DNA from: an uncultured virus (IMG/VR IMGVR_UViG_3300032136_000003)
Lineage: Duplodnaviria; Heunggongvirae; Uroviricota; Caudoviricetes
Length of the DNA stretch: 21,589 nt
Reading direction: 5' to 3' (one strand)
IMG/VR virus record: IMGVR_UViG_3300032136_000003
Made by a program: the position numbers and the translations under genes. The notes beneath the pieces were generated by a model. That model saw nothing but the letters and a program-made list of their open reading frames with translations, did no database searches and was not told the origin of the DNA. Positions 1 to 20,079 of the stretch are shown here, piece by piece. Numbering within the stretch: position 1 is the first letter of the stretch; every line of letters begins with the position of its first letter.

Positions 1-94
1 CCTGACCGCGATTAGTGATCGTTAACGCTTGAGCAACTGAAACAATCATGAAGAGTGCTAAAGCGCTAGCAAGTATTTTATATGAACTACGCAT
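1..94 (-). CDS. 5' part of a gene downstream of the capsid gene, encoding a signal-peptide-bearing protein (runs off the window edge)
   Basis: AAGGAG RBS then ATG at 94; translates MRSSYKILASALALFMIVSVAQA-LTITNRGQ..., with basic N-region, hydrophobic core and AQA cleavage motif; not in the ORF track. Confidence 0.7.
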   Translation of the reverse strand, partial: MRSSYKILASALALFMIVSVAQALTITNRGQ

Positions 95-1948: not shown

Positions 1949-1981
1949 CATATTTTTTAAAATAATTAAAACTTTTTTCAA

Positions 1982-2003: not shown

Positions 2004-2012
2004 CCGAAGATT

Positions 2013-3642: not shown

Positions 3643-3665
3643 TTCGTCTCCTTATGTTGTTATAA

Positions 3666-6056
3666 TTATCGATCCTGCCTCTTCAGGTCGATACTGGCGC
3701 GAGTCTTAGCAGACTCCATCGCCAGTTCGGCAGCCTGACGCTCAGCCTTCAAGCGGGTGTCTGACACAGCTTTACCACGCTGTATCTGCATCTGCTCGGC
3801 AGTCTTAACACGTCTGGCCTCATTTATACTCTCCTGCTTCATAGTCTCCAGTTCGAATTCCTTCTGAATCTCTAGAACCTTGGCGCGGAACTCACGATCT
3901 TGTATGATCTGCTGTGCCTGGCCAACCTGCTCAGCCTGAGCCTGCTGTTGTTTCTGGACATCAGCCATAACGCGCTTAGCCATAGCCTGCAGTTTGCTGG
4001 CAGCTTGACCTGCGATCTGCAAGAACTGTTCTATCTGGGCGACATAATCGGCGCGGCGCTTGTCTGGGGCTAGATATTGTAAATGACCGGCTATGTGCTG
4101 CATTTCCAACTGCATAGTCCTAAAGTCAGTAACAGGATCCTGCACCTGAGCCGCGTCCACAGCTTGTATAATAGGAGCGATTCTAGCGACATGGCTATCT
4201 ATATGAAGTTTATGAACCTGATCATGACCCACGACTACAACGGAACCCTCGAACATATCGTTATCTTCAAGAGCCGCAATAGAACTTTCGTTACTGGTGA
4301 TCTGGTCTCTGTCCATACGGGCTACATATTTGTGAGCGTTTCTGTAGCCAACTCGTGCGGCTACGAAATCAAATAAAGCGTTACGTTTACCATTCTCGTC
4401 AAAAGAGCCGCTTACGTTCAATATCTGTGATGTTATGTCGTATTTAACAGAAGCGCTCCCGAGGCCTATGGCACGAGTTGTGGCAACCCTAATCTGGTCT
4501 TCCCACTCATACAAGAATTTCTTTGGAACACCGCGGGCCACGCATCTGTCAATAAAGTCCTTGGCGGGCTGCTGCCCGGGATACTCAATCTCTGACTCTA
4601 TGTAATCTTTGCGAGTTACCCGACGAAAAATTTCAGAGTACAAATTATCAAGCATATTGTATCTATGTGTGATAGCTGCCTTCTCGTACCGAGCTTCCTG
4701 ACTAGTCTCAGCCATAACCTGACGAGCTGTCTTAGGAGTGTCGTTATCGAGACTCTCTGAATGCTGACGATATGTACCAGTATTGTTCTTAAGAACTTCT
4801 TCAGAGACACGACGTAGAGAAATCAACGGAGCGATCTGAGGCTGGAATGTAGACTGTATAGCCTTAACTTCCGGAGGAAGAATGGTATAAGGCCCGTGGT
4901 GCATGAACTGCAGACGAGACAAATCTCCCTGACCGTTAGGCTGGAGCAACAGACTGGACGACATAAATCCGGCATCAAATACTCGGCATAGGAACCTATT
5001 ACTTAGATCGTCATGCTGGGCCATATGACTAGCCACACCGCGCACTGACCGCGCGTATCCGTCGCCATAATTATAAGGCAACCACCAAATAACTTTGTCC
5101 ATCTGTTCGTATTTATCAAGTCCCTCATAAATGAAAACAGGCTCAGAAGATTTCTCAGGCATGATTAGATGAGAAACTCGGCGCTCCCCATGCACTTCCT
5201 GAACAAGAATATGTACTACTCTGACTCGGTCAAACTGTCTTGACTGGTACTCAGGATCGTTGTTGCGGTAACGATGTTGCAGAGATTCCCAAGGTGACTG
5301 CTGGAAATCGTCGTCGCTGTCTCCGTTCTCCCCCTTCTCACGGAATACCTGAACCAATAGTTGTTTAATATAAGAAGGTTTCCAACCGGCGTTGCGAGCC
5401 ACTTCCTCATCATCCAGCAGTTCGAACAAGTCTGCCGCCTGCATCTCGCCACGAATCATGTAGATCTCGTTATCATTTACATCCACGCTAGCCTTAGGAT
5501 CCATCAAAAGGTTGCCCCTACGATAGGCTTTGGGTCGCCATTCCCATTCATTCTCAAATAGCATATATCCTATACCATACGCATCGGACTCTCTAACGAC
5601 TAGATCCAGGGCTTCGTGGCGACCTCTCCACTCCTCTAACGTCTGAGAAAACTCTTCTGCCACGATCGAGCACCAATGATAAATATCTGGGTTAGCTATC
5701 GCGCCTGGCGCCTTAGGATAACACTCAATTGCCGTAGGAACTTCGACAAACAACTCGTGGGCGGCGGCTGCGCGAGCATCTAGATTAGCACGCATAGTCA
5801 TAAAGTTAACGTTTGTTATGTGGCCCAGTCCCGAATCCTCCAGTTCATCATCGCTATAAGGATTATTACCGTCGATCATGCCCTGCAAAGTAGCCCTGCG
5901 CAAAGCGTCTTCACTATCCTCATCGAGTAGTTGTTCAAATATAGTATCAGCCGCAGCCGGAGTCGCCAAGCGACGCGGGGCTGGGGAGCCTGAATCATTC
6001 TGAACCGTTTGAAGTTCCAGTTCTTTAGTATCGTCAGCAGCTCTATTCTCGACCAT
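3666..6056 (-). CDS. Portal protein (796 aa) with a long C-terminal Q-rich coiled coil (P22-like barrel)
   Basis: Size, head-module position, YGIGY and YARSVRGVA motifs, helical Q/E/K-rich C-terminus; GGAGG RBS before ATG at 6056. Confidence 0.8.
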   Translation of the reverse strand: MVENRAADDTKELELQTVQNDSGSPAPRRLATPAAADTIFEQLLDEDSEDALRRATLQGMIDGNNPYSDDELEDSGLGHITNVNFMTMRANLDARAAAAHELFVEVPTAIECYPKAPGAIANPDIYHWCSIVAEEFSQTLEEWRGRHEALDLVVRESDAYGIGYMLFENEWEWRPKAYRRGNLLMDPKASVDVNDNEIYMIRGEMQAADLFELLDDEEVARNAGWKPSYIKQLLVQVFREKGENGDSDDDFQQSPWESLQHRYRNNDPEYQSRQFDRVRVVHILVQEVHGERRVSHLIMPEKSSEPVFIYEGLDKYEQMDKVIWWLPYNYGDGYARSVRGVASHMAQHDDLSNRFLCRVFDAGFMSSSLLLQPNGQGDLSRLQFMHHGPYTILPPEVKAIQSTFQPQIAPLISLRRVSEEVLKNNTGTYRQHSESLDNDTPKTARQVMAETSQEARYEKAAITHRYNMLDNLYSEIFRRVTRKDYIESEIEYPGQQPAKDFIDRCVARGVPKKFLYEWEDQIRVATTRAIGLGSASVKYDITSQILNVSGSFDENGKRNALFDFVAARVGYRNAHKYVARMDRDQITSNESSIAALEDNDMFEGSVVVVGHDQVHKLHIDSHVARIAPIIQAVDAAQVQDPVTDFRTMQLEMQHIAGHLQYLAPDKRRADYVAQIEQFLQIAGQAASKLQAMAKRVMADVQKQQQAQAEQVGQAQQIIQDREFRAKVLEIQKEFELETMKQESINEARRVKTAEQMQIQRGKAVSDTRLKAERQAAELAMESAKTRASIDLKRQDR

Positions 6057-6603
6057 CAGTCTTCCTCCAACAATTATCCGGGAAGTCACCTTCCGGGTTC
6101 TTTTCATCTATATGGACTACCGCTGATAGCGACGCCGCATCTACGTTACAAACTCCTAGCCACTCATCGCGCGGGGCGAGAGTACTACCAACCAATTTCC
6201 TCGACCAAGCCAACAAACCTACGCAAGAAGGGCACAAAGTGCGGTCATCCTGTGCGCAGTTGGCGCATGTCACGGCTCTGCGGGACGCCTCTGCTTTTCC
6301 CACACGCCCGTTTTGCCTAGCCTTTGCGAGAGTTATATCTTTTATTTTAGCCATTGTCACTACTCTCGCACGAGGCCTACCGTCCAAGCTGCCGTAACAA
6401 AAGTCGTTGGGCAGCTTGCGGCACATATAATCTACTACAACTTCCTCGAGATTCTGAGGAAGTTCTATCTTTTCAACAGTTGCGTGAATGCGTACCTTAA
6501 GAAGCAACGATCTCATGTCATACGCCTCAAAAAGGGAGTCCCCCAGTTGGTAAAAATATTTACCTCCTGGGGGTACTATTCGCTTTACCCTAAACTGTAA
6601 CAT
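6043..6603 (-). CDS. Cys-rich hypothetical protein (186 aa), probably metal-binding
   Basis: CANC, CPSC, GVC and NCW motifs; ATG at 6603; overlaps the portal start. Confidence 0.65.
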   Translation of the reverse strand: MLQFRVKRIVPPGGKYFYQLGDSLFEAYDMRSLLLKVRIHATVEKIELPQNLEEVVVDYMCRKLPNDFCYGSLDGRPRARVVTMAKIKDITLAKARQNGRVGKAEASRRAVTCANCAQDDRTLCPSCVGLLAWSRKLVGSTLAPRDEWLGVCNVDAASLSAVVHIDEKNPEGDFPDNCWRKTDGRE

Positions 6604-6916
6604 CTTCCCCACCCCCCACAAGCTTATATATATCCTCTAAGCTGTACAGCCACTTTCGCGCACCACGGCCACCGACGACACTCGCCCTACGTAGCACGCC
6701 GTCCCGGACCCAAGTAGTGACCTTGCATCGGAATGTCGCCACCGGCATTTCTAGCAAATTAGCTATTTCCGAAGAAGTAGCTACGTCGCCGAGAGCTTCT
6801 AGCGCCTTCTTATCGCTTGCTACCTTGTCTTTTAACAACTGCCTATAATCTACGCTTAACGGTTCTCCATTCTTTGTACCACTCCCGCTTGAAATAGAAT
6901 TTTGTCTCTTCTCCAT
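6590..6916 (-). CDS. Winged-HTH DNA-binding protein (108 aa)
   Basis: TSSEIANLLEMPVATFRCKVTTWVRDGVL HTH-like pattern followed by a wing (GRGARKWLY). Confidence 0.6.
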   Translation of the reverse strand: MEKRQNSISSGSGTKNGEPLSVDYRQLLKDKVASDKKALEALGDVATSSEIANLLEMPVATFRCKVTTWVRDGVLRRASVVGGRGARKWLYSLEDIYKLVGGGEDVTV

Positions 6917-7668
6917 CCTTCCGCCTCCGTTGCTTGCACGACCACCTTGACTAGTCCAATGTCGACATGGCCGTCACAAATTTCGTCCCCATAAACACTA
7001 CCTAGCCCACTCCAGGCAGGTAGAACAACAACATCGCCCCAAGCGTTCTCTGCCGCAAGGTAGTAATGTCTATGCCCGAATAACATAAGATGGGGCCACA
7101 CAGGTGCCCCACCCCCATCCTTTGCAGACAAGGCTGCGTTTAACACATTCCAAGTCTGAGATTTCAGCGGAGCCGTAGCTCTGCCGTGCGGAATCCCAGA
7201 GCCGCCAATAAAGTGACGAGCCTCTAGGACAAACCAATCGTTAATTGTCGTCTTCAGCTTGCGCCGTATAGACACCTTAACCTCTCTGTTATACTTCAAC
7301 AGCATCTGAGTCTTGATGCGCTCTGCGCAAACAATGTCAAATGCCTGATCTTCGTTCATGACGTGGTATCTAGTACCCGTCACCAAAATTACTTCTCGCT
7401 TAGGCTTCTGCATAACTATGAGGTCTGCGCAATCCATAGCCTGCTTAACCATGTCCTCTTCTGTCGTGTCTTTGCTCTTCTTGTCTTTACCGTCCCAACC
7501 ATCCCCATTGTGCAATATTATGTCTGGTTCGCAGCCAAGCCACTCTATTGCCTGCTTGTACCTGTCGAGCAATCGGGCCTGTACTAAGTTTCGTGGATCG
7601 GTTGTCAATCCAGTTGTGGCCCCGTCATGAGTGTCCGACATTACCGATATGATAGTCTCTTCTGGCAT
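6856..7668 (-). CDS. Calcineurin-like metallophosphoesterase (270 aa)
   Basis: SDTH, NGDGWDG, GTRYH (in place of GNH), RH and GHRH motifs in canonical order; GGAGG RBS before ATG at 7668. Confidence 0.8.
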   Translation of the reverse strand: MPEETIISVMSDTHDGATTGLTTDPRNLVQARLLDRYKQAIEWLGCEPDIILHNGDGWDGKDKKSKDTTEEDMVKQAMDCADLIVMQKPKREVILVTGTRYHVMNEDQAFDIVCAERIKTQMLLKYNREVKVSIRRKLKTTINDWFVLEARHFIGGSGIPHGRATAPLKSQTWNVLNAALSAKDGGGAPVWPHLMLFGHRHYYLAAENAWGDVVVLPAWSGLGSVYGDEICDGHVDIGLVKVVVQATEAEGWRRDKILFQAGVVQRMENR

Positions 7669-7691
7669 ATAGTCCTCCATTAACTTCACCA

Positions 7692-7720
7692 AACATACAA
7701 CAAAACGGGCACCAGGTCAA
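7692..7720 (-). promoter_or_regulatory. Sigma70-type promoter for the phosphoesterase-portal-scaffold genes
   Basis: TTGACC-17 nt-TATGTT in the intergenic gap. Confidence 0.55.
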
Positions 7721-7723
7721 CTG

Positions 7724-8350
7724 TTAAATTAATATTTCTTCTATGCACTGATCCGTTACATCTTCGTAGCATCCCTGCAGGATCCTATTCTCAAAAGTCT
7801 TAGGCGTCCAGAGCTTCTTCTTTTTACCGTCAGGCCCATCTATGATGTGATGACAAATGGCCATAGTAGCCTTAGCAACAAGTTGCGAGCACCACTGAAG
7901 ATGCATCCTGAACGGAATAAACCCGGTGGCGTTGACGAGCTTAGACGCCAGTATGATCATTTTCCACTTCTTTGGGTAGGGTAGCCCCAATAAAAATCGG
8001 GTGAAGTAGTGGGACATGGCGACCCGCTGCGCTTCCGTGCAGTGCTTCAGCCTATATATGCGGACTCTATACCCCTTATCCATCATGGCTTCGTACTCTT
8101 CTATAGTGGTGAGACGTGAGACAGGCTCTACAGCTTCTGCAATAAACCAATGCCCGCTCTTGTAGACAGTCATGGCATCGTGGTTGGAGTAAGAACCCAC
8201 TCCGAACCGAATCAATTTAGAGTACTTGTCTTCGCCGGGGATCTCGTTGCGACATTTAACCAAGTCACCCGCATGCAGGTTCGTCGTTATAAACTTGTAT
8301 CTGGTTGTGGGTACGTCCCGTCGTGTTACTGGTTCTCTGGATGATTTCAT
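7724..8350 (-). CDS. Permuted papain-like NlpC/P60 (YiiX/YaeF-like) enzyme (208 aa)
   Basis: LHAGDLV, YSNHDAM (His), IAEA, VRIYRL, GLPY, WCSQLV (Cys) and TP motifs in His-before-Cys order. Confidence 0.75.
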   Translation of the reverse strand: MKSSREPVTRRDVPTTRYKFITTNLHAGDLVKCRNEIPGEDKYSKLIRFGVGSYSNHDAMTVYKSGHWFIAEAVEPVSRLTTIEEYEAMMDKGYRVRIYRLKHCTEAQRVAMSHYFTRFLLGLPYPKKWKMIILASKLVNATGFIPFRMHLQWCSQLVAKATMAICHHIIDGPDGKKKKLWTPKTFENRILQGCYEDVTDQCIEEILI

Positions 8351-8353
8351 AAG

Positions 8354-8752
8354 CTACTCCGTTACGGTTACGAGTTGCTGCACGGCCTTCACATCCTTTT
8401 CAATGGTCATGAAGTCAGGCAGTTTGCCCTTGCTGTCAAGCCAAAAGTATACAATAAATATGACCACGGCCGCTCGGAGCAAATCGCGCGGCTCGAAGTT
8501 AGATAATTCGAGGGGGCCAAATTTCAGCCCAGCCTTGTTGTGTTTCTTCAGTTCAATCAAGGCCTCGCTTACGTTAGTGACGGCCTCCTGGTTCTTGGCA
8601 ATCGTAGTCACCAACGCTTCTTTGCCGTTTGTTTTGAACAGCCGGTCATTCACCGTGGCGACCTGTTTGCTGACATTCTTTATCTCGGCCAGCATGGCGT
8701 CGTTCTGTGGCTTGCATATTTTGTTATAGTGTTCTTCCGGCGTCATAGACAT
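8354..8752 (-). CDS. Membrane protein with a coiled coil and one TM helix (holin-like candidate)
   Basis: Coiled coil with NG motif, then hydrophobic AAVVIFIVYFWL. Confidence 0.45.
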   Translation of the reverse strand: MSMTPEEHYNKICKPQNDAMLAEIKNVSKQVATVNDRLFKTNGKEALVTTIAKNQEAVTNVSEALIELKKHNKAGLKFGPLELSNFEPRDLLRAAVVIFIVYFWLDSKGKLPDFMTIEKDVKAVQQLVTVTE

Positions 8753-8769
8753 ATCCCCAACCCCCTATT

Positions 8770-9210
8770 TTAAAACATTACGAATCGAATTGACTTAATC
8801 TCAGCTTTGCTGAGCGTAACCCACCCGGGCCGCTGAGGTTCAATGAACCTTACCTCGTGATCTTTGCCGACGATTGCAACGTTAATAGCGTGCCATCCAC
8901 CGTTGTCGATCTTGTACGATACTTCACCTATGGCGATGCCTTCTGCGGGGTTCTCCTCACCCCGCTGGCCGTTGCACACAGAAGCCAACCACCGCAGCCC
9001 TGTAGACTTGTCGTCGCAGTCATTGTTTGGCTTCCAGCCTTTAGTGTTTAGGAGTTCTACAACTTCTTCGTGCCATATAAAAAATTCATCAAACCACTCT
9101 TTCGCTGGAACGAGATACGTTGAATCGCGGAACTTGAGTGCCTCCAGATTCGGGTAGTTGTCCCGGCTGAAGATCTTGTGCAACTCTGCATATGTTATGA
9201 CGTCACGCAT
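8770..9210 (-). CDS. Papain/transglutaminase-like cysteine protease resembling the MOA agglutinin C-terminal domain (146 aa)
   Basis: DCDD (Cys), WHAIN (His) and FIEPQ (Glu) motifs. Confidence 0.65.
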   Translation of the reverse strand: MRDVITYAELHKIFSRDNYPNLEALKFRDSTYLVPAKEWFDEFFIWHEEVVELLNTKGWKPNNDCDDKSTGLRWLASVCNGQRGEENPAEGIAIGEVSYKIDNGGWHAINVAIVGKDHEVRFIEPQRPGWVTLSKAEIKSIRFVMF

Positions 9211-9347
9211 TACTGCTCTCCATCACTGTACGGGACTGGTGGATTGGTTACACTACCCGGAAACCGATATGGGTTGCTGATCGGTGTAGTCACCGTTCCG
9301 CATCCTGCTAGAATTAATGCCGCTATGATTGCTATTATCAGTTTCAT
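9210..9347 (-). CDS. Small Pro-rich lipoprotein (45 aa), o-spanin-like candidate
   Basis: MKLIIAIIAALILAG-CGTVTTPISNPYRFPGSVTNPPVPYSDGEQ; LAGC lipobox; ATGA and TAATG overlaps with both neighbours; absent from the ORF track. Confidence 0.75.
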   Translation of the reverse strand: MKLIIAIIAALILAGCGTVTTPISNPYRFPGSVTNPPVPYSDGEQ

Positions 9348-9745
9348 TCTGCTGGCTCCTCCTTCTTGGTTAGACCTAAACTTTCACACTTGGCTTGAAC
9401 TGCATCAGATTCGCTCTGTCCGGCTTCGGGTTCAACATCCCCGATCCATGCCTTATTCGCATCAATCGCCGCCTGAATCTTCGCCTTGATAATCGCTAAC
9501 TGTTCAGGTGTCCATTGCTCTTTACTTGCCCTGCGTAGCTTGCTCATTGCTCCGTTAGCAAAGTAGGCGATGCCGTAGTCGTGGAGGCCTGCCTCGTATT
9601 CAAATGACAGTCCGATTGATTGCTGTTCAGGCAGGAAATTTTGAAAGAATGCCTGAATCTCCGCCTCTTTGTTCAGCCATGTATCGTCACGGATTATGAG
9701 CAAAAGCCCTATCATAAACACTGTCATTATCATATCTTTTTTCAT
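9344..9745 (-). CDS. Hypothetical protein (133 aa) with a hydrophobic N-terminus
   Basis: Tiles between neighbouring genes; MKKDMIMTVFMIGLLLII. Confidence 0.7.
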   Translation of the reverse strand: MKKDMIMTVFMIGLLLIIRDDTWLNKEAEIQAFFQNFLPEQQSIGLSFEYEAGLHDYGIAYFANGAMSKLRRASKEQWTPEQLAIIKAKIQAAIDANKAWIGDVEPEAGQSESDAVQAKCESLGLTKKEEPAE

Positions 9746-9751
9746 AATCCC

Positions 9752-10528
9752 CTACGGTCTGTATTTACGCAACAAAGTGTTGCCTATACTTTTAATATCA
9801 TTAGTTGCTTGGTTCTTATTATAAATTCGAGCTTCATAGATTGTACCTTCCCATTCTTGTCCACCAACAGTCTGCTGTAATGCGCCTATTGTGGTAGACA
9901 AAGCTTGATTTACCAATCCAGTAAAAGTCCCAACTGTAACTGGAGTATCCGCAGGAGTTACCACTCCATTGGTGTAAAAAGTAAGAGAGTCTGGTGTAAG
10001 CCCTCCATCCCACTTATAAGTTATGACGTGAACTCCACTACCTAGAATAGATTGTATAAAGCCCGTCTGCTTTCCAATAGAATTAGCAATACTTCCAGTA
10101 TATATTTTAATCTGCATAGCACCAGAGGTCTTTCTTACAATAAAATCCCTCAGTCCGAGACCATCTGCGTATCTACCCATGATTGTTTCGGATGTGGTGT
10201 TCCAACCTTCTATCACAAAGTGTGCAGTAAATCCATCAGTGAACTTTGTACTAGCAGATTCTGGTACGCTGTACCAATCATCTACACCATCAAACACAAG
10301 CGCATTGCTATTTGTCCATACAGGTTGCTTGTTTGCTGTAGCCTGTACTGCGTTATTGCTGTAAGAGGTGGAATCGTAGATAATCCCAGATACATCAAAG
10401 TCTGCATCGAACTCGTGCCACGCAACGAGGTTAGTATCAATTGGTGCTGACGGTTGCCACAATCCAAACATAGGTCTGGCCTGTGCAGTTGATACTAACA
10501 TAAGTAATATGGCTACTGTTAACCTCAT
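9752..10528 (-). CDS. Signal-peptide LamG/concanavalin-A-like domain protein (258 aa)
   Basis: AQA-RPMFGLWQ; LVAWHEFD, ALVFDGVDDW, YTNG, IGA and WEGTIYEARIYN motifs. Confidence 0.8.
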   Translation of the reverse strand: MRLTVAILLMLVSTAQARPMFGLWQPSAPIDTNLVAWHEFDADFDVSGIIYDSTSYSNNAVQATANKQPVWTNSNALVFDGVDDWYSVPESASTKFTDGFTAHFVIEGWNTTSETIMGRYADGLGLRDFIVRKTSGAMQIKIYTGSIANSIGKQTGFIQSILGSGVHVITYKWDGGLTPDSLTFYTNGVVTPADTPVTVGTFTGLVNQALSTTIGALQQTVGGQEWEGTIYEARIYNKNQATNDIKSIGNTLLRKYRP

Positions 10529-10998
10529 GGTTCTATGATCCCCGTTCCGAATGTGTAGCCTGCAATGGCGTTAGTGATTACTGGTGAGTCTATCGGTAAA
10601 TTTGTTATGACGCAACTATTGTTCGCCATATAGGTCGTTAATTGATCTTTTGAGAACGTAGTCAGAACTAGTTTCTTGAGCGGTATTCCCTCTGTGCCTT
10701 CTGGCAAAGCATACCACCAGTGAACTTTGATCGTGCCTGCTGAGTTTGTCCATTTGTAAAGATCAGACCAGCACGTCGTAGCCTGTTTGCCATTCAATGG
10801 AGTATATAGAACGTTAGTATTACTCATATCAAAATACTGCGGGTAGTTTGTGAAAATCTGCTGTAATGCCCAGTGAAATTTATTATAGACCTCAACAGCG
10901 TGACCGTCTGTCTGGTTCTGCATCCCGAATATTTTAACTGTTTCCTGTGCCGATGATACACTTGCTATTAAACAGATTGCTAAAATCAATTTCTTCAT
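10525..10998 (-). CDS. Signal-peptide hypothetical protein (157 aa)
   Basis: AGGAG RBS and ATG at 10998; MKKLILAICLIASVSSA-QE. Confidence 0.75.
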   Translation of the reverse strand: MKKLILAICLIASVSSAQETVKIFGMQNQTDGHAVEVYNKFHWALQQIFTNYPQYFDMSNTNVLYTPLNGKQATTCWSDLYKWTNSAGTIKVHWWYALPEGTEGIPLKKLVLTTFSKDQLTTYMANNSCVITNLPIDSPVITNAIAGYTFGTGIIEP

Positions 10999-11005
10999 AA
11001 TTCTC

Positions 11006-11812
11006 CTACTGTGTTGGTGCTGAGTCTTTATATGGATGATCTGCGGGTAGATTGTCTTCAAGCCCCCATTTCCATGCAAGATATCCTTCAAGTTTCTGTC
11101 GGTCTGATAGAGAAACGGTACCGCTGATCACAATAATTTCGCCTAGAGTTCCATTCCAGCCTTGAGCAGTGCCATTGCCGTCACCTATTCTATTCCATGT
11201 AGATGCCCCTGATTGTGCAACATCTGAAAACATCCTTGTGTAAGAGATCGCAGCATTATAAGCCATGTCTACTTTGTTGGCACTATTTCTTGTCACACCT
11301 ACAATCACTGGATTGTTTCCTAAACCAAAAGCCAGCGTTCTGTCGTCACTAGTCAGCACCCTCAAGAATGTTTTAGAGGAATAGAAGCCTATCTTATTAT
11401 CACCAGATGTTTCCCCGAAATACATGTTCGCTTCTCCGACTATGTCGTTTTCAAACACAGCGAAGAATCCAAATTCTCCGCTTAAGCTGATGACTGATGT
11501 CAAATCTAGCTGGTTGTTTGCACCATCAAAATCAAGTACGTTCAAACCATCAATTGTTCTAGATCCAGTTGTGGGCTGATATGTGCCAGTACCCTGCGTG
11601 GCGTGCTTATTATTTCCGCTCTTATCATCCCACTGGCTGACGGCTCCTGCTGATTCTGTAATCGTGTTAGTGTCTGATGCATCATACCAAGCGTATGTCG
11701 TTAGGTTGGATGGTGTCCAAAGAGGTGCTGATGATGATTGCCACAATCCCCACATAGGTCTGGCCTGTGCTACACTTGCCATTAAAAAGATTGCTAAAAT
11801 CAATTTCTTCAT
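11006..11812 (-). CDS. Signal-peptide LamG-like beta-sandwich protein, putative adhesin (268 aa)
   Basis: AQA-RPMWGLWQ; AWYDASD, VSQWDDKSGN, LDFDG, GTLGEIIV and EGYLAWKWGL..LP.DHPYK motifs. Confidence 0.8.
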   Translation of the reverse strand: MKKLILAIFLMASVAQARPMWGLWQSSSAPLWTPSNLTTYAWYDASDTNTITESAGAVSQWDDKSGNNKHATQGTGTYQPTTGSRTIDGLNVLDFDGANNQLDLTSVISLSGEFGFFAVFENDIVGEANMYFGETSGDNKIGFYSSKTFLRVLTSDDRTLAFGLGNNPVIVGVTRNSANKVDMAYNAAISYTRMFSDVAQSGASTWNRIGDGNGTAQGWNGTLGEIIVISGTVSLSDRQKLEGYLAWKWGLEDNLPADHPYKDSAPTQ

Positions 11813-11818
11813 AACTTC

Positions 11819-12640
11819 CTACTGTGTTGGCGCTGAGTTTTTGTATGGGTGATCTGACGGTAAATTAGCCTGCAATCCCCACTTCCATGCAAGATAACCT
11901 TCTATCTTCTGGCGGTCAGCTTCTGAAATAGCACTACTGAAAAAGATTGTTTCAGCAATCACGCCATTGCCATACCCTGAGTCATTCGGTTGCCCTCCCA
12001 AGGCTAAACGCTGACTCGTAAACGTGGTTACAGTAGTAGTTCTAGAACTGACTACTCCATCCTGTGTCGCAAGCTGACTACTAGTGCCGTTCTTCACGTA
12101 GGCCGAAAAATGTGGGTTGGTATCTTGAGCAAAATATAATTCTGCTTGATTTGGATAACGACTTCCATAGCCACGTATTGTCAGGTTGGCTCCTGCATTC
12201 CTTATGTAACCTTCTGTGTGTGTGGCTCTTCCGAATCCAAAAAATGATCCTGCCGAGCCAGAGATGATATCACTCTTAAAAACTTGTGCGAAGGATATAT
12301 TCAGACTGCTAACTGCAAAAGATGTATTCATTAGAATATCGCCACCATCAAAGTCTAAAACGTTGAGAGTTCCTATTGTCCTTGCTCCTGTGGTAGGTTG
12401 TTTTGAACCTGTCCCTTGAGTTACGTGTCTATTATTCCCACTCTTGTCATCCCACTGGCTTACCGCTCCTGCTGATTCTGTAATCGTATTTGTATCTGAA
12501 GCATCATACCAAGCGTATGTCGTTAGGTTGGATGGTGTCCACGGTTCAGCTGATGATTGCCACAATCCCCACATAGGTCTGGCCTGTGCAGAACCTGCAC
12601 AGATTAAAACTAAACCTATTATGGAATACAACCGACGCAT
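11819..12640 (-). CDS. Signal-peptide LamG-like beta-sandwich protein, paralogue of 11006..11812 (273 aa)
   Basis: Near-identical N- and C-terminal segments to the neighbouring gene, with a divergent middle. Confidence 0.8.
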   Translation of the reverse strand: MRRLYSIIGLVLICAGSAQARPMWGLWQSSAEPWTPSNLTTYAWYDASDTNTITESAGAVSQWDDKSGNNRHVTQGTGSKQPTTGARTIGTLNVLDFDGGDILMNTSFAVSSLNISFAQVFKSDIISGSAGSFFGFGRATHTEGYIRNAGANLTIRGYGSRYPNQAELYFAQDTNPHFSAYVKNGTSSQLATQDGVVSSRTTTVTTFTSQRLALGGQPNDSGYGNGVIAETIFFSSAISEADRQKIEGYLAWKWGLQANLPSDHPYKNSAPTQ

Positions 12641-12649
12641 CAGAACTCC

Positions 12650-13420
12650 TTATCGAGCTTTGCCCGTAGCGTAGCGAGTGCCGTCAGCTCCTATGAATAT
12701 AGAAATTATATTCGTGTTGCCCTGCGTCAGTTCATCACCCAACCAATCAAACGCACCTTCTCCAGAAGTAGCTCCCCAAACAATATCCCCTGAGCCGTCA
12801 GCCGTAATAGCCTCTAATGTGAGAGTCATGCCTGCTGTTGCATTTGTGATTTGGAAAATCGTACCGGCAGAATATCCTGACAGTGTTGCAGAGAGATACT
12901 CTGACACATCCCAGACGACGTTTGTGCCTGATTCGGTAAGCGTTGCCATGCCTGTTACTTTGTCTGTAACTGCATCATAGCTCATTACGTCGTTGCCATT
13001 TGTGCCCGGTGCTGATATCTGCCATAATCCGAGAGAGCAATCAAGTACAGGCGCACTAGCACCAAAATCAATTACGGTTGTCCCATCTAGCTGGAGGTAT
13101 GTTTCTTCCCCTCCCACATCTATAGTGGTGAATTTAACACGTGTCCCAAAGAAAAGATCGGAATCTACCGGAATATACACATCGTCAAACACATTGCTTG
13201 ATGTGAACGTATTAAAGTTAGCCAGGTACGCATAAAGATTTGTCTGACCATCAAGGACTCCTATAGACACTTCATTGGATGTGACCCGGTCCGTTAGCGC
13301 ATTCAAAGCGTAAGGACTTGGTGTCATATAGATAGCGGCTTCATAAGAAGGAGTCGTATCAGAGAATGCAAGGGAAGACCCCAACATAACAGCGAGAAAT
13401 ATTGATAAGAACTTGTACAT
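12650..13420 (-). CDS. Signal-peptide fibre-like protein (256 aa)
   Basis: AAGGAG RBS and ATG at 13420 (MYKFLSIFLAVMLGSSLAFS); short coiled coil, T/S/G-rich body and a C-terminal domain resembling phage fibre distal domains (ITNATAG..LTL..DGSG.IVW..IISIF..DGT.YA). Confidence 0.65.
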   Translation of the reverse strand: MYKFLSIFLAVMLGSSLAFSDTTPSYEAAIYMTPSPYALNALTDRVTSNEVSIGVLDGQTNLYAYLANFNTFTSSNVFDDVYIPVDSDLFFGTRVKFTTIDVGGEETYLQLDGTTVIDFGASAPVLDCSLGLWQISAPGTNGNDVMSYDAVTDKVTGMATLTESGTNVVWDVSEYLSATLSGYSAGTIFQITNATAGMTLTLEAITADGSGDIVWGATSGEGAFDWLGDELTQGNTNIISIFIGADGTRYATGKAR

Positions 13421-13433
13421 AGGGGACTCCTTG

Positions 13434-13910
13434 TTATCGATTGATGTCAATATAGCTAATAGTAGGCGTTCCTGATTCCGCAATCGCGAAGAAGGCGGAT
13501 TGGAATCCCATGAACGTTATCGTCTGTAGAGGCTCAAGCTTTATGCCTTCGCCCGAAACCGCGGCCTTGTCTAAGTTAAACCATACACTGATAGCCGTGT
13601 CTGTGTTCTGAAACATAACAGCCTTGCGTGCGTTGTGGTTAAAGAAACGAAGATTGTTTGCAACGCCGGACATGTGTACAGGTTCGTTAACCGAGGAAGC
13701 AATAAGAATCTCGGCCATATAAAAATAACCGTTGTTCTCTACAATCTGTCCCTGAGCCAAGGCGATGCCGTTAGTCCATTGTGTTGCTGCACCAATACCC
13801 CGCGCGGGCAAAAACTTCTGGGAGCTTGTGCTCAACGCCATGTTGCCACCCTCTGCCATAACGTAGCCTGCCACAAACAAAACCGCAATCGCGACCAATA
13901 TCTTCTTCAT
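13434..13910 (-). CDS. Signal-peptide protein with a small beta-sandwich C-terminal domain, spike-base/decoration-like (158 aa)
   Basis: MKKILVAIAVLFVAGYVMA-E; RKAVMFQN...GIKLEP...FAIA pattern. Confidence 0.6.
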   Translation of the reverse strand: MKKILVAIAVLFVAGYVMAEGGNMALSTSSQKFLPARGIGAATQWTNGIALAQGQIVENNGYFYMAEILIASSVNEPVHMSGVANNLRFFNHNARKAVMFQNTDTAISVWFNLDKAAVSGEGIKLEPLQTITFMGFQSAFFAIAESGTPTISYIDINR

Positions 13911-13911
13911 C

Positions 13912-14394
13912 CTAATCCTCCATCAATAGTTGTAAACCCTGCTCCACAGCATCGTTGCTGCCACCCAGCCCCTGCGTTGGGTCGGAGTTCTCAATGTTAA
14001 TATCACCCACTACAATAGATGTTTTGTCTCGTGGGTCGAAGCCGGGCTTCTTACCTCCGCGAAAAGACATGTCATACAATAGGTCCTGCTCAAAATTATA
14101 TAGAGTGCCGGGAGAAAAGAAATCCCCGACGACATACCAAAGTTCCTCTTGTTTTCTGTGAAGAAGTTTCAAAGGTTTAGCTGTGTAAGGACAGACCAAT
14201 GCTTTAACAGCATTCTTGACTCCCTTGCGCATGCGCATAGCCGTCATCGCCATCTCTTCGGAAACGAACGGAAGGCGAGGGTCTAATCCACCTTTAAGAT
14301 AGAAACCGGGATGACGGAGGTCGTCACAGTGGACGACCTCCATTTTGTTACCGGTATATGGACAAGTATAATTAGGCTTTTTTCCCACCGTCAA
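13912..14394 (-). CDS. Hypothetical protein with two internal CPYT-initiated repeats (160 aa)
   Basis: CPYTGNKM...P..PF..E...M.MRKG and CPYTAKPL...P..LY..E...M.FRGG; GGAG before a TTG start. Confidence 0.7.
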   Translation of the reverse strand: MTVGKKPNYTCPYTGNKMEVVHCDDLRHPGFYLKGGLDPRLPFVSEEMAMTAMRMRKGVKNAVKALVCPYTAKPLKLLHRKQEELWYVVGDFFSPGTLYNFEQDLLYDMSFRGGKKPGFDPRDKTSIVVGDINIENSDPTQGLGGSNDAVEQGLQLLMED

Positions 14395-14650
14395 CTACTC
14401 CCATTTTGCTTATGGCTTCTTTGGCTTTACCCTCAACCTGCGTCTCTCTGAAACGGAGATACCCTTCCATGCTCTGCATGAAAAGAACTCCCGCGTCAAA
14501 CTGATCGAGCGCCTGTCTTCCAATGTTAGACAACGTGCCGTCGCCAGCATTGGCCTGAACCGTTTCAAGAATCTTATTACGAACTTGGTTAAGCGTCCCG
14601 AACTCCTCCATGAACATACTCTCTACCCCGAACTGCGATGCTTCACTCAT
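14372..14650 (-). CDS. Hypothetical helical protein (92 aa)
   Basis: AAGGAG RBS; first gene after the terminase. Confidence 0.7.
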   Translation of the reverse strand: MSEASQFGVESMFMEEFGTLNQVRNKILETVQANAGDGTLSNIGRQALDQFDAGVLFMQSMEGYLRFRETQVEGKAKEAISKMGVVDGGKKA

Positions 14651-14671
14651 CTGTGTCTCCTTAATGAATTA

Positions 14672-16495
14672 TTAATACTTACCAGAACGATACGATTTCA
14701 TAGCCGAAAAGTCAACACTTTTCTTGTAAAAAGTTGAAAGAGTTACTTGGGGTATAATCACGGTCGGTTCGAAGCCGCCCACGGAAATACCCGCGTCCCT
14801 ATCTCGGCCAGGAGCGAGACCGCAGTGCAGCTTCGCAGCGCGGCAAGCAAGAGCCACCGCGTCACTCTCATCTGGAGAACTCCGTCCGGTCAATCTCTTT
14901 TTGAAATCACCCTTAGATTCCAAAGCCAGGGGTATGATACCCTTCTTATACATGCGAGAACAGAACTGCTGTCCCGCCACAGGATCCAGACCGCGGATCT
15001 GGTCATTCCTGCCGAGGTCGGCCACAAACGACCACATCTCTGTAACAAGATTCTTATACCTAGCTTGGGCGGGCTGGCCCGTCGGACTGATCTCCTCTGT
15101 CGCCTTTGCGGCAAAGTTGCATCGAATCGGGACAACACCAGTCTCATGTTGATAAACATCAGCTATACTCTGGGTACCGCTGTCGTCTATTGCAACATTC
15201 TTCAAAGGAACGCCGTGCATAGTTAGAACAGCCCGAGCCTCGTTGACTATCTGATAGGAAGCTGGGACGCCACTTGACGCACTAATCGGTATATAAGTAG
15301 GCGGAAGGAACGCGATTGCGTAGACTCCACCCTTTAAATAGCCCACAAGAGCCATCTGCAGCATGCAGTTGTCACCACCACTAGTGAATGCGGGGTCTAA
15401 TCCAGCCACTGGAATGAGAGATCCAGCATAACTTTCGGCCCAAGCAGGTTGGTCTGTCATATGAAAAGTAGTGATATCAGCAGGTGAAAGCACCGTATTA
15501 CTCAATCCAATAGGGGTTGGGTACCCATGGACCATAGTCCACACGACCGCACTGTCAGCATTTCCATGACCTTCTTCCCTAATAGTAGTCTCTATCTGAT
15601 CTTTGTTGATAAGATACGGATACTTCTCAGCACCACCCTCCTCAACCACAGCTGGAGAATCATAACCGTTGTGGTGCAAGACCAATCCGTACCGGGAACG
15701 CCACTGGGGTGTGTGCTCGTCTACAGATCCCCAGCCATCGAGAGGTTCGCAAAAACGAGTAGCCTCATCATTGAAGCTCGTCGGGTTCGCGAGACTGAGA
15801 AACCTAAACCTCTTAGCACCCATACGAGCGTTGATACGAGCCTTGGCAGCCGCTGGCGGCAACGCAGATCCTTCATCGAGTATTAAAGTAACAAACGGCA
15901 TGTGGGCACCAGCCAGCCTGGCAACAGCCTTGGATTCAGAACCACCATCCTGTAAAGCCACACCACGAATAGACGCCTTTATTGTAGCGTCGTTGTTTAT
16001 GTCGTCGTTCTCATTGATTATAGCCTTGAGTGATGGAGCTTCTTTCCCGGGGATGTAAAACTGTGGGTTGCGTTTCAGGGTACGAAAGGCACGTGTCACT
16101 GATTCGAAGGAACGTATCTTTAACATATCAACAGATGTAGAGGCCAGCGCTATGTATGTGTGAAGGGGGTCGCAGATCCACTCTAACACAGCACAGAAAC
16201 CAGCATCGTTACTCTTACCCGTGGATGCGGCGCCCAACTCTACGATGAAATTCTCTTCGCACCACGCGTGGACATGCTCCTCCATCCACCGGTGCCGACC
16301 CCATTCATCGTTGGTAAACAGGCCATCTATAGCACGGAGCCAATGCTCGCCTGGAGCGGAGTCAATTTTCCCATACTTGTAAGGCTCCAGCATCCATTTC
16401 TTACCTAAGATAAGCTCTATCTGGATATCGTGGATGTCTTTAGGCCAATCAAGCCCGTATTTAGTCCTTGTGTTCTGGCCTATGATGTTTGCCAT
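14672..16495 (-). CDS. terL: Terminase large subunit (607 aa)
   Basis: Walker A GAASTGKS, Walker B LILDE, ANP coupling motif, RNase H-like nuclease motifs AGLDPA and SPDESDA. Confidence 0.9.
   Translation of the reverse strand: MANIIGQNTRTKYGLDWPKDIHDIQIELILGKKWMLEPYKYGKIDSAPGEHWLRAIDGLFTNDEWGRHRWMEEHVHAWCEENFIVELGAASTGKSNDAGFCAVLEWICDPLHTYIALASTSVDMLKIRSFESVTRAFRTLKRNPQFYIPGKEAPSLKAIINENDDINNDATIKASIRGVALQDGGSESKAVARLAGAHMPFVTLILDEGSALPPAAAKARINARMGAKRFRFLSLANPTSFNDEATRFCEPLDGWGSVDEHTPQWRSRYGLVLHHNGYDSPAVVEEGGAEKYPYLINKDQIETTIREEGHGNADSAVVWTMVHGYPTPIGLSNTVLSPADITTFHMTDQPAWAESYAGSLIPVAGLDPAFTSGGDNCMLQMALVGYLKGGVYAIAFLPPTYIPISASSGVPASYQIVNEARAVLTMHGVPLKNVAIDDSGTQSIADVYQHETGVVPIRCNFAAKATEEISPTGQPAQARYKNLVTEMWSFVADLGRNDQIRGLDPVAGQQFCSRMYKKGIIPLALESKGDFKKRLTGRSSPDESDAVALACRAAKLHCGLAPGRDRDAGISVGGFEPTVIIPQVTLSTFYKKSVDFSAMKSYRSGKY
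14687..14715 (-). promoter_or_regulatory. Sigma70-type promoter inside the terminase 3' end
   Basis: TTGACT-17 nt-TATCGT, about 36 nt before ATG 14650. Confidence 0.5.
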
Positions 16496-16637
16496 CTAGC
16501 TCCTTCTCACAGTGGTGACATAGTGGGTGCTCGGGAAATCTTTCTCGAGCGTCGTCTATAGATAGGTTATGAGCCAATATAACGCGACACTTGTCACAAA
16601 GGACGGCTCCGCACCCGCCATTATACTTAAAATCCAT
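16461..16637 (-). CDS. Small Zn-finger protein (58 aa)
   Basis: AGGAG RBS; MDFKYNGGCGAVLCDKC...LCHHCEKE...; not in the ORF track. Confidence 0.65.
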   Translation of the reverse strand: MDFKYNGGCGAVLCDKCRVILAHNLSIDDARERFPEHPLCHHCEKELDGKHHRPEHKD

Positions 16638-16646
16638 GGTAGACTC

Positions 16647-16838
16647 CTACAATAAATCAATAGTTAGCTCGTCCAATGGAGGTAGGTAGGGGCTGCAACT
16701 CGGGCACACATCCCCGTGGACTCGCTTGCATTCCGGGCAAAGCTCGGCTCCACATGAGAGGCAGAAGAGTTCGTCCGCAATAGGATCCAAATCTGCACCG
16801 CACCTAACACAATAATCGGACTGTGAATACGTTGACAT
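16647..16838 (-). CDS. Small Cys-rich Zn-finger protein (63 aa)
   Basis: Four CxxC motifs. Confidence 0.65.
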   Translation of the reverse strand: MSTYSQSDYCVRCGADLDPIADELFCLSCGAELCPECKRVHGDVCPSCSPYLPPLDELTIDLL

Positions 16839-16868
16839 AATCTAATCTACTAAATAACAGCGTAGCCG

Positions 16869-17321
16869 TCAAGTCTTTCTTAACTCTGTTTCTTTACGAA
16901 ATGCGCAATCCAAATAGACGAACCTAAGCTGCCACTCGGGGCAATCGTTGTCCGGAAGAACGAAACTATTTCGAACCCAGGCGGATACTATATCAGACAA
17001 CCCGGAAGTTATATACGCCTTGAACTCACCAGGGTCTATGCCCACAAGTCTTTTCCGAGGCTTAAGATTTCTATACAAAAAATCAGCTGCGTGTGAACAC
17101 TCATGCACAATGACGTGACTATCTGTGGAGTGTAGGGCTATATCGATAGGTACGCACCCGTCCCGCCCGGGGTAAATCATACACACCCCAGCTATCCGGC
17201 TGGTCACGCATTCGTGGGGGTAGTTGCGTCTGAGAAACCCCGTGAAGCCGCTCCGGGATTCGTATACAGTAACCCGCACATCGATCCCCCTGTCTGGATT
17301 CTGAACAAACATTCTTTTCAT
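16869..17321 (-). CDS. HExxH zinc-metallopeptidase-like protein (150 aa)
   Basis: VIVHECSHAA plus downstream EFKAY. Confidence 0.6.
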   Translation of the reverse strand: MKRMFVQNPDRGIDVRVTVYESRSGFTGFLRRNYPHECVTSRIAGVCMIYPGRDGCVPIDIALHSTDSHVIVHECSHAADFLYRNLKPRKRLVGIDPGEFKAYITSGLSDIVSAWVRNSFVLPDNDCPEWQLRFVYLDCAFRKETELRKT

Positions 17322-17566
17322 ACGAAAAAGCTTATTTTGTTATCGTCACATAGTTTCACGGAGTCTACTGCAAGGCGAGTACCTATCGCCAAGACCACGT
17401 ATTCATTGAGCAAACCCTCTGAGGCTAAGTCCTTAAACAGCTGAACTATCCGAGTCGCCTTCCACTTATCGAGCTCCTCGACCCAAGCTTCAGCAGCCTG
17501 AGCCCGGACTTTCCAATGTTCCCGGCTATCTTTCAGCCCATCAACAAAATCAGCGCTATATCTCAT
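17318..17566 (-). CDS. Hypothetical protein (82 aa)
   Basis: GGAGG RBS; ATGA coupling to the next gene. Confidence 0.6.
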   Translation of the reverse strand: MRYSADFVDGLKDSREHWKVRAQAAEAWVEELDKWKATRIVQLFKDLASEGLLNEYVVLAIGTRLAVDSVKLCDDNKISFFV

Positions 17567-17717
17567 CAGAAGCCTCCCGTTTCAACCTGCAAGCCTGGCA
17601 GAAATGTTCCTTGTGTATCTTGTACCGCGGCAATTCCCTCACGGGTATTTCCGGGTCGATACAGATATAACACTTATCACAGAACAGAATACAAATGTCC
17701 CCTTTAACTTTTAACAT
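17556..17717 (-). CDS. Small Zn-finger protein (53 aa)
   Basis: MLKVKGDICILFCDKC...HFCQACRLK; AAGGAG RBS and TAATG coupling; not in the ORF track. Confidence 0.6.
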   Translation of the reverse strand: MLKVKGDICILFCDKCYICIDPEIPVRELPRYKIHKEHFCQACRLKREASDEI

Positions 17718-17935
17718 TATGGTCTCCTTATATTATACAGCTTCCTATCCAGGGCCCGACGTAACGTACGTATAGTGTCCTCTAATTCATCTATACGATT
17801 GTTTAGCCGCTTAATCTCCCAGTCATTTACGCCGACGTTGGGGGTAAACACAGGAGGATCGGGCAACGTATAGGGGCATCCCATGAGATGATCCCCTCCG
17901 TTATTATTACATCCTGGACACAAGGGTTTAGTCAT
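17717..17935 (-). CDS. Hypothetical protein (72 aa) with a CxxC-H-C motif and coiled coil
   Basis: CPGC...H..GC, then a heptad pattern. Confidence 0.6.
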   Translation of the reverse strand: MTKPLCPGCNNNGGDHLMGCPYTLPDPPVFTPNVGVNDWEIKRLNNRIDELEDTIRTLRRALDRKLYNIRRP

Positions 17936-18155
17936 TGGTCTCTTCCTGAATCTCTTCGCTGTCTATAGAAACGTCAACCCCTGGAACAAAACTGACGTTA
18001 GGCTTGACATCGGCCCCACCAGTCGTGGCATTCTCAGCCATAGCGTCGTTTCCAGCCACGGGTTGGCTTGATCTGTTATTCAATATGTTAACTGACACCG
18101 TGACAACGCACCCCGAGCACAGGGCAACTAAACACAAAACTGCTAATATCCTCAT
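17928..18155 (-). CDS. Small lipoprotein (75 aa)
   Basis: MRILAVLCLVALCSG-C lipobox. Confidence 0.7.
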   Translation of the reverse strand: MRILAVLCLVALCSGCVVTVSVNILNNRSSQPVAGNDAMAENATTGGADVKPNVSFVPGVDVSIDSEEIQEETND

Positions 18156-19710: not shown

Positions 19711-20079
19711 ATGACAGTACTAGGTGAGAAGACAGAGGTTTCGGGGTATATCAATGGTGTCACGAGAACCAAAGATGGGGAAGGTAACCATCTCAGGTGC
19801 ACGTTGATATCGGAGAATCCAGCGCATGCGAACATTCGTTTCAGTGTGCTGGAACCGCTGGAATCCACAGTGCAAGCTGGGACGAAGGTTGTTGATGGCG
19901 TGTTTCAGCGCGCCTTCGTGAAAGGTGGGGAAATGGCTCCACCAGTGGAATTCAAGCCAGATGATAGGCCGGGCGTTACGCTCGTGTACTATACTGGTTA
20001 CATAATATCCGCGCAGAGCGTGGTTAACGGTGCCAGAAGTGTCCTTGGAGACATGCTGGCGCAGAACCAGAAGTCGTAG
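19711..20079 (+). CDS. Beta-rich hypothetical protein, possibly OB-fold/SSB-like, copy A (122 aa)
   Basis: AAAGGAG RBS; paralogue at 20540 with many synonymous changes; the fold is only an impression. Confidence 0.8.
   Translation: MTVLGEKTEVSGYINGVTRTKDGEGNHLRCTLISENPAHANIRFSVLEPLESTVQAGTKVVDGVFQRAFVKGGEMAPPVEFKPDDRPGVTLVYYTGYIISAQSVVNGARSVLGDMLAQNQKS

Follow-up and report, generated by a model that had tools for sequence, protein, structure and literature searches.

Six consecutive genes with predicted Sec leaders in an uncultured tailed phage, and the possible addition of exported proteins to particles at lysis

We analysed a 21,589-nucleotide stretch of DNA from an uncultured member of the Caudoviricetes (IMG/VR record IMGVR_UViG_3300032136_000003), hereafter the window, in which six consecutive genes, SP1 to SP6, encode proteins with predicted Sec-type signal peptides (leaders). 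From about position 19,300 to position 1 the genes lie on the minus strand: small early genes, the large terminase gene TerL, g92 and g160 are followed by the six-gene cassette. After it come genes for a transmembrane protein and a lipoprotein, g146, g132, g208, g278, g108, g192, the portal gene, g107, a scaffold-like gene, the capsid gene and the start of one more gene. Packaging genes precede the cassette and the spanin/lysis genes follow it, beginning with a spanin-like pair immediately downstream (Table 1).

All six genes begin at an ATG with a Shine-Dalgarno motif (GGAGG, AAGGAG, AGGAG or similar) 6-10 nucleotides upstream. Each encodes a leader of 17-20 residues in the n-h-c layout, with one or two Lys/Arg in a positive n-region, an uncharged core of 12-16 residues and small residues at -3/-1; immediately past the small-x-small site come the residues that the family conserves best. 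With a slash at the predicted cleavage site and the next two residues added, the leaders read MKKILVAIAVLFVAGYVMA/EG (SP1), MYKFLSIFLAVMLGSSLAFS/DT (SP2), MRRLYSIIGLVLICAGSAQA/RP (SP3), MKKLILAIFLMASVAQA/RP (SP4), MKKLILAICLIASVSSA/QE (SP5) and MRLTVAILLMLVSTAQA/RP (SP6). Leaders were called throughout with a home-made heuristic for the n, h and c regions and the -3/-1 residues, not with SignalP, and its scores are uncalibrated. The Sec/signal peptidase I pattern was defined as a positive n-region, an uncharged hydrophobic core of ~10-16 residues and small residues at -3/-1 within the first ~30 residues; it was found in 6/6 genes read from their Shine-Dalgarno-backed starts.

Among the long minus-strand open reading frames (ORFs) of the window, the heuristic picked out exactly the six cassette genes and one 75-amino-acid (aa) lipoprotein-like ORF. 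The latter (17928-18155, minus strand) lies among the small early genes and starts MRILAVLCLVALCSGC. A stricter setting flagged 6 of 24 window ORFs of at least 100 aa and 20 of 141 ORFs in loci of the same lineage. In 79 unrelated IMG/VR phage loci it flagged 17 of 758 (2.2%), for the most part proteins of lysis type. The binomial P for at least six of the 24 window ORFs is 1.2e-5. A public gene caller had put the start of SP3 at an internal Met (MWGLWQ, protein P0001) just past the predicted cleavage site. This internal ATG has no Shine-Dalgarno motif, and the frame upstream of it is open and hydrophobic in every paralogue though the residues differ, and is therefore translated. The heuristic, the start sites and conservation thus support the six predicted leaders as real, and they strongly suggest that the six proteins are exported and cleaved. 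A sequence-only reading of the window had called six consecutive signal peptides here, and its coordinates and its corrected starts (ATG 13420, ATG 10998) proved right. The transmembrane protein and the lipoprotein that come next extend the run to eight consecutive envelope-directed genes.

Table 1. Features of the window and of related loci (positions are those of the window unless a locus label is given; a slash marks the predicted cleavage site)
Feature	Position	Strand	Description
SP1	13434..13910	-	158 aa: 19-aa leader and 139-aa beta-rich protein, no Cys
SP2	12650..13420	-	256 aa from ATG 13420: 20-aa leader and acidic protein
SP3	11819..12640	-	273 aa: leader and LamG/ConA-like lectin domain (predicted), C-terminal EGYLAWKWGL...HPYK motif
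SP4	11006..11812	-	268 aa: leader and LamG paralogue, 48% identity to SP3
SP5	10525..10998	-	157 aa from ATG 10998: leader copied from SP4; mature part with 2 Cys
SP6	9752..10528	-	258 aa: leader and divergent LamG paralogue without the C-terminal motif; start overlaps SP5 stop (ATGA)
Conserved 56-nucleotide junction (repeat family D3)	12543-12598, 11724-11779, 10440-10495	-	codes ..AQA/RPMWGLWQSS
Gene after capsid gene (SP-A family)	1..94	-	start only, cut by window end; leader and TITNRGQ
TerL	14672-16495	-	607-aa large terminase; Walker A GAASTGKS and LILDEGS (Walker B) read in sequence
Upstream frame of the cassette	13912..16495	-	TerL, g92, g160, none with leader
i-Spanin-like	9344..9745	-	133 aa: transmembrane anchor at the N-terminus without a cleavage site; outer part helical
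o-Spanin-like lipoprotein	9210..9347	-	45 aa (MKLIIAIIAALILAGC...), Pro-rich, lipobox LILAGC, ribosome site GAAGGAGG, 4-nucleotide overlap with upstream stop
Probable remaining lysis block	7724..8752	-	g132 (C-terminal transmembrane segment), g208 (YiiX/Peptidase_C92 papain-like match); matches below curated cut-offs
Scaffold-like protein	2013-3329	-	438 aa, weak Phage_scaffold match
Cys-cluster protein	L003 10278-10838, L005 13107-13505, L004 9239-9667, L009 4203-4598, L095 12012-12317, L096 12044-12364		small, leaderless

Parts of the leaders have been copied from gene to gene. The D3 junction is common to SP3, SP4 and SP6, whose hydrophobic cores differ; its copies are 88% and 73% identical to the reference copy, and all three LamG paralogues carry RPMWGLWQ(S/P)S after the cleavage site. 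A second repeat of 52 nucleotides, 90% identical, is shared by the leaders of SP5 (10949-11000) and SP4 (11763-11814) and includes the end of the preceding gene, although the mature part of SP5 is unrelated to SP4. Because the SP5 leader is a duplicate of the SP4 leader, we regard the leader as a selected, portable element.

Sequence comparison and modelling support SP3, SP4 and SP6 as lectin domains of the LamG/ConA type. SP3 matches phrog_10356 ('virion structural protein') at 2e-37. With SP4 it belongs to a family of ~260-aa proteins ending EGYLAWKWGL..HPYK, which has 1047 matches in the protein collection and at least 661 loci in IMG/VR. None of the three has a Pfam match at E <= 0.01, the gathering score of Laminin_G_3 (PF13385) not being reached; PF13385 is on record for 7 of 120 listed homologues and scores 33.9 bits in L005:77-1861. 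AlphaFold2 (AF2), given 81 sequences, modelled SP3 as a ConA/LamG-type two-sheet jelly-roll sandwich (predicted local distance difference test, pLDDT, 85.5; predicted TM-score, pTM, 0.84). The best PDB match of the model by Foldseek is 9vyh_p, a 269-aa chain of the tailspike entry of cyanopodophage Pan3 (E 2.7e-8, TM-score 0.55/0.56), and carbohydrate-binding lectin-like domains rank after it. The 299 PDB matches at E <= 1e-3 include AbnA domain 4, a trans-sialidase lectin domain, neurexin LNS and clostridial Hc-N. Neither SP3 nor the LamG profile had a meaningful match in PDB sequence searches, and because the family profile finds no PDB sequence, the likeness to the Pan3 chain is one of fold only. 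SP6, for which the IMG/VR search returned no homologue, aligns with the family profile A3 (hhalign probability 95.9%, E 5e-9, 207 columns). The LamG likeness that the sequence-only reading had proposed is borne out in SP3, SP4 and SP6. It had also named the head spike of the Rhodobacter capsulatus gene transfer agent (RcGTA) for comparison; the SP3 fold matches listed include no RcGTA structure.

The other three proteins have yielded little. SP1 and SP2 had been likened to a spike base and to a fibre with a distal domain, and these identities found no backing: no relative of either was found among 5.8 billion cluster representatives, nor of SP2 among 1.84 billion representatives read by HMMER. 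Weak ESM Atlas matches, leads only by the tool's own calibration, link SP1 to small viral beta proteins (0.82) and SP2 to viral clusters, some with T4_gp9_10_N or Phage_phiTE_241_C (score 0.90, TM-score ~0.4, again a lead only). SP5 had no relative in a narrow search limited to IMG/VR. Pfam and NCBIfam scans of the six proteins gave nothing usable, and PHROGs matched only the two LamG genes SP3 and SP4 and, weakly, SP1 (phrog_19864, 6e-5).

Do homologues of the LamG members carry leaders elsewhere? In other phages, where the family is nearly always leaderless and found in structural modules, they mostly lack one, a comparison that had been proposed as a check on the leaders. The best 79 IMG/VR loci encode 81 members of the family, of which five were flagged, all weakly (short cores, doubtful starts) and none convincingly. 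Among the 120 best matches in the protein collection 13 were flagged, one being the window's own SP4 and one doubtful, which leaves ~11 leader-bearing members. S-CBS4 gp058 and KBS-S-2A gp053 are leaderless homologues located in structural modules; like phrog_10356, they belong to the same domain family as the window LamG proteins (35-45% identity, EGYLAxKWGL..HPYK end). Leaderless phage LamG-type proteins are similar in size to those of the window and are encoded by stand-alone genes, often in tandem arrays. Two IMG/VR contigs of 296 and 476 kb (L015/L016) hold, at 2387-7721, six tandem leaderless LamG paralogues with a common N-terminal extension of 75-88 aa. Three leader-bearing relatives (P0007, P0014, P0093), 46-49% identical in the domain body, score 27.7, 30.6 and 23.5 bits for the PEP-CTERM sorting domain (TIGR02595). 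This is above the cut-off of 16, and they are therefore taken as proteins on the surface of diderm bacteria. No protein of the window has the domain. For the leader-bearing members, 16 of 36 top-three neighbours are also leader-bearing, versus 14% expected. Several such members stand amid leaderless ones, and leaders have therefore been gained or lost more than once. The leader-bearing LamG relatives elsewhere have linkers other than the RPMWGLWQ(S/P)S of the three window paralogues.

A search with the capsid protein found relatives at 12 metagenome loci and on two contigs of metagenome-assembled genomes (MAGs), at 56-72% identity; they are cited here by locus label (L) where one must be told from another. 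The block g192-portal-g107-scaffold-capsid is kept among them, whereas the stretch upstream of g192 is not. In L099 TerL, a gene of g92 size and a g160 homologue are followed by a leader-bearing 140-aa protein and a leader-bearing BspA-type leucine-rich repeat (LRR) protein (1.9e-40). Leader-bearing genes with other domains thus occupy the cassette's place, so its position is kept while its content is exchanged. Neither SP1 nor SP2 is similar to the leader-bearing proteins that L099 encodes there. The L099 terminase (3211-6276) is one 1022-aa open frame in which the match to the window TerL is split (query 8-96 and 91-568) by ~340 extra in-frame residues, which suggests an intein-like or domain insertion.

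By the same leader calls, the habit is common to the whole lineage and reaches the genes after the capsid gene. The first of these, SP-A, starts in the window at 94 with MRSSYKILASALALFMIVSVAQA/LTITNRGQ and also has the leader pattern, as had been read from the sequence. The leader is present in the window copy and in all 12 of the 14 relatives that have the gene; the other two begin with the next family. The most conserved stretch of SP-A is its new N-terminus, TVTNxxGQV, in which T-x-T-N-x-x-G is invariant. A model made from relative L002, the window copy being cut, has a jelly-roll fold like that of capsid cement proteins. By this fold and by its location beside the capsid gene SP-A resembles a capsid cement protein, capsid binding being only predicted. 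SP5 shows no similarity to it. SP-B, which follows SP-A in the relatives, has a leader, a conserved stretch of 55-68 residues at the start (44-48% identity) and a variable remainder with weak tail-fibre PHROG matches. A constant N-terminus with a variable rest is, as far as these alignments go, the pattern of particle-anchored fibres. SP-C, which comes next, has a leader and, in L095 and L096, a Phage Tail Collar domain (63 and 48.7 bits, cut-off 24). In L095 there is, in addition, a Collar fibre without a leader (75.8 bits); at its place L096 and L008 have no leaderless fibre gene.

Several other genes of the relatives deserve mention. A small leaderless protein with an N-terminal Cys cluster (e.g. 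C..SCPE..P) is conserved amid the leader-bearing post-capsid genes. In L101 (G001:C12) a 5681-aa ORF after the tail genes (729-17774, minus strand) carries a superfamily 1 helicase module in its third quarter (AAA_30 1.2e-23, UvrD_C_2). L100 encodes at 14063-14443 (plus strand) a 126-aa protein without a Pfam match, in which a leader is followed by ..MVESGG..; it is like a secreted or signal-anchor-release (SAR)-type lytic transglycosylase.

The remaining genes place the cassette in a phage of an uncultured lineage. 'Terminase', 'portal' and 'capsid' are names given by size, order and motifs; the proteins (813 aa for the portal, 530 aa for the capsid protein) were not recognised in Pfam, PHROGs or PDB sequence searches. 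None of the three has a match in 50,697 cultured phage records, and the lineage is therefore uncultured. The scaffold-like protein has a TPEV repeat run (PEVTPEVTPEVT...) near its N-terminus. Two paralogous genes of 122-124 aa (..ISGYINGVTRTKDGEGNHLRCTLISE..) lie on the plus strand at 19711-20079 and 20540-20914, at the far end of the window, where there is a change of sign in the GC skew.

Directly downstream of the cassette, the overlap of a transmembrane-protein gene by a lipobox lipoprotein gene is the architecture of a two-component spanin. PHROG Rz-like spanin profiles match the pair weakly (E 0.057-0.28), the best match being to a Cor signal region (0.0019). The lipoprotein gene is missed by ORF lists with a 50-aa minimum, and L005 encodes a similar lipoprotein of 41 aa. 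On their sequence features, g132 and g208 may complete the lysis block.

Which host would these genes serve? A pattern scan for two capsid-protein motifs in one genome per species from 185,579 species found the lineage only on two MAG contigs, of 57 and 33 kb; the 57-kb contig, the one read through, has only phage-type genes. The bins concerned (L095/L096) are labelled Oscillospiraceae and Eubacteriales and lack Omp85. Tetranucleotide similarity between contig and bin is moderate for one (r ~0.7) and poor for the other (r ~0.2), the composition of the window matches none of the relatives, and no tRNA gene was found in the window. Mis-binning is likely, and the MAG host labels are unreliable. 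Diderm hosts are suggested by the spanin-like pair, the small lipoproteins, the shortness of the leaders and the relatives with PEP-CTERM domains. The host thus probably has an outer membrane and hence a periplasm, the compartment that the sequence-only reading had proposed; for this the spanin-like pair is good, not conclusive, evidence. A Bacteroidota host, considered for the A/Q sites, was rejected. Strong Shine-Dalgarno motifs, which nearly every gene here has, argue against hosts of that phylum.

Phage proteins that carry Sec or lipoprotein signals and act in the envelope are well known, among them T5 Llp, Cor, lambda Lom/Bor, T4 RI and Sec-exported or SAR endolysins. T5 Llp, Cor, lambda Lom/Bor and T4 RI are products of single small genes and lack virion-type binding folds. 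Unlike the lineage of the window, such exported accessory proteins form no run of six and are no lineage-wide trait of head- and fibre-like proteins. In a literature whose coverage here is incomplete, especially for subscription journals, we found no description of fibre, decoration or cement proteins of tailed phages with Sec leaders. While exported phage proteins are known, we have not found a run of six, or a lineage-wide habit that includes cement-like and Collar-fibre proteins, described. The cement proteins compared with SP-A were Pam1 7eel_H, GP4 8h89_J, KHP30 7dn2, KHP40 7dou and BPP-1 3j4u_H. Relative to the solved chains SP-A has the leader and ~28 extra N-terminal residues. In KHP30 and KHP40 the matched region begins at residue 2, leaving no leader-sized extension, and in Pam1 and GP4 at residue 18-19.

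Two known systems come closer. In Cellulophaga phage phi18:3 (NC_021794.1) three consecutive proteins, gp085, gp086 and gp087, have classical leaders, e.g. MKKTIYILSILLLTISGVSAQT; their annotation in the record, as structural or tail proteins, is given there as 'based on experimental MS/MS proteomics analysis' (tandem mass spectrometry, MS/MS). Nine other phi18:3 proteins with the same annotation were checked and have no leader. The genes for gp085-087 lie beside the endolysin, terminase and portal genes, apart from other structural genes, and neither the record nor the literature found remarks on the leaders. The three proteins are longer than those of the window (547-785 aa), no sequence or Pfam relation to the latter was found, and the phi18:3 host is a Bacteroidota species, unlike the host inferred for the window. 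The second system is the xepA gene of the Bacillus subtilis element PBSX, which lies at the end of the PBSX structural genes, beside the lysis genes. Its product, XepA ('PBSX exported protein'), is described in PMC6834076 as a late protein exported beyond the membrane, with jelly-roll-like domains comparable to cement proteins, and as absent from PBSX particles. It differs from the window in its single-membrane host and in being one gene, not a cassette, and the two are likened by description only.

Where would these proteins act? In the explanation we favour, the six genes would encode Sec-type pre-proteins, made late, in a phage of an outer-membrane host. The pre-proteins would be translocated to the periplasm and their leaders cut at the small-x-small site. 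The cassette would be swappable: leaders and junctions have been copied between its genes, and relatives have other binding domains in this position. In the window it would supply three lectin domains of LamG type and three beta-rich proteins for which no relatives were detected. The mature proteins would stay in the periplasm until lysis brings the compartments together, and would then attach to the finished particles as accessory fibres or decorations. What was observed in support of this explanation is the leaders, the start sites, the LamG fold and the spread of the habit through the lineage. Export and cleavage, the diderm host and attachment are steps that we infer, and we put the joining of particles by the exported proteins after lysis somewhat short of an even chance.

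Attachment to the particle is favoured because the folds are of virion type (the Pan3 match, and leaderless homologues in structural modules), and because the cement-like SP-A has a conserved new N-terminus and SP-B the pattern of an anchored fibre. It is also favoured because L096 and L008 have only the leader-bearing Collar protein at the fibre position, and because phi18:3 gp085-087 are annotated in particles by MS/MS. By analogy with the phi18:3 record, attachment to virions at lysis is plausible. A wider claim is possible but held more tentatively: that this lineage and several unrelated ones build part of the virion outside the cytoplasm. Sec-exported, leader-cut decoration, fibre and lectin parts would be added to DNA-filled particles at lysis, and the terminase-portal cassette would supply interchangeable, late-added host-recognition tips.

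Several points weigh against attachment. The mature LamG proteins begin ~12 residues before the domain and have no recognisable particle-binding domain, and the cassette belongs not to the tail module but to a stretch that relatives do not conserve. With three PEP-CTERM surface proteins among the nearest leader-bearing relatives, the subfamily also works on cells, and the leaderless and leader-bearing Collar proteins of L095 form the pattern expected of a secreted mimic. XepA, an exported late protein, is reported absent from PBSX particles, and MS/MS of purified particles can include co-purifying envelope material. A motive for export is not evident: oxidative folding was rejected for the window because the mature parts of the six proteins, nearly Cys-free, hold 3 Cys in 1260 residues. 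For the window phage itself, particle attachment is a prediction, and its leaders were called by the heuristic.

Exported proteins that never enter the particle are the strongest alternative, one we consider a serious though minority possibility. Such late proteins would act in the periplasm or envelope: they could bind envelope glycans or incoming phage parts for superinfection exclusion, mask receptors on the dying cell and its debris, or help lysis along or set its timing. In favour of this, the cassette has the spanin-like pair and the probable lysis genes as neighbours, and its content varies, with LamG domains in the window and the BspA-type LRR protein (1.9e-40) in L099. Its close relatives include the PEP-CTERM surface proteins, and L095 pairs leaderless with leader-bearing Collar proteins. 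Export of phage proteins has precedents in T5 Llp, Cor, lambda Lom and T4 RI, and XepA, late and exported, is reported to be missing from particles. This explanation leaves unaccounted for the leader on the cement-like SP-A in the window and in all 12 relatives with the gene, the conserved new N-termini with variable C-termini, and the sole, leader-bearing Collar protein at the fibre position of L096 and L008. In addition, phi18:3 gp085-087 are reported in particles, and proteins held in the periplasm would be unable to mask surface receptors before lysis.

It is unlikely that the N-termini are something other than cleaved export signals, tethering the proteins to the inner face of, or into, the cytoplasmic membrane as an assembly platform or going unused late in infection, with the proteins joining particles in the cytoplasm as usual. 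That would preserve the textbook assembly route, and the AF2 models, which give the leaders low confidence, are silent on their fate. Every leader, however, has the full layout of n-region, core and -3/-1 residues and is followed by the most conserved residues of its family. SP5 gained the SP4 leader by duplication, which argues for selection on the leader itself, and the true transmembrane anchor in the same block, that of the i-spanin-like protein, differs in having no cleavage motif. Least probable of all, and very unlikely in our view, are host-derived surface adhesins carried as cargo ('morons') and displayed to the advantage of the infected or lysogenic cell, unrelated to particle or lysis: the PEP-CTERM relatives (46-49% identity in the domain body) and the BspA-type LRR protein of L099 fit that idea, but the window proteins have no PEP-CTERM or other anchor, no integrase was seen in the window, the lineage was found only on two MAG contigs in the 185,579-species scan (the 57-kb one with only phage-type genes), and the genes stand in a late operon between, and on the same strand as, packaging and head genes.

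In the textbook account tailed phages assemble entirely in the cytoplasm. Export signals on cement-like, Collar-fibre and lectin proteins throughout a lineage imply either an extracytoplasmic step of virion maturation that has gone unrecognised or a class of secreted mimics of receptor-binding proteins. Either outcome, if true, would change the annotation of host-range modules, in which leader-bearing 'fibres' are now trusted or discarded blindly, and it would also change the production of engineered phages and the reading of virion proteomes. The question is directly testable in cultured phi18:3, whose particles already have leader-bearing proteins on record.

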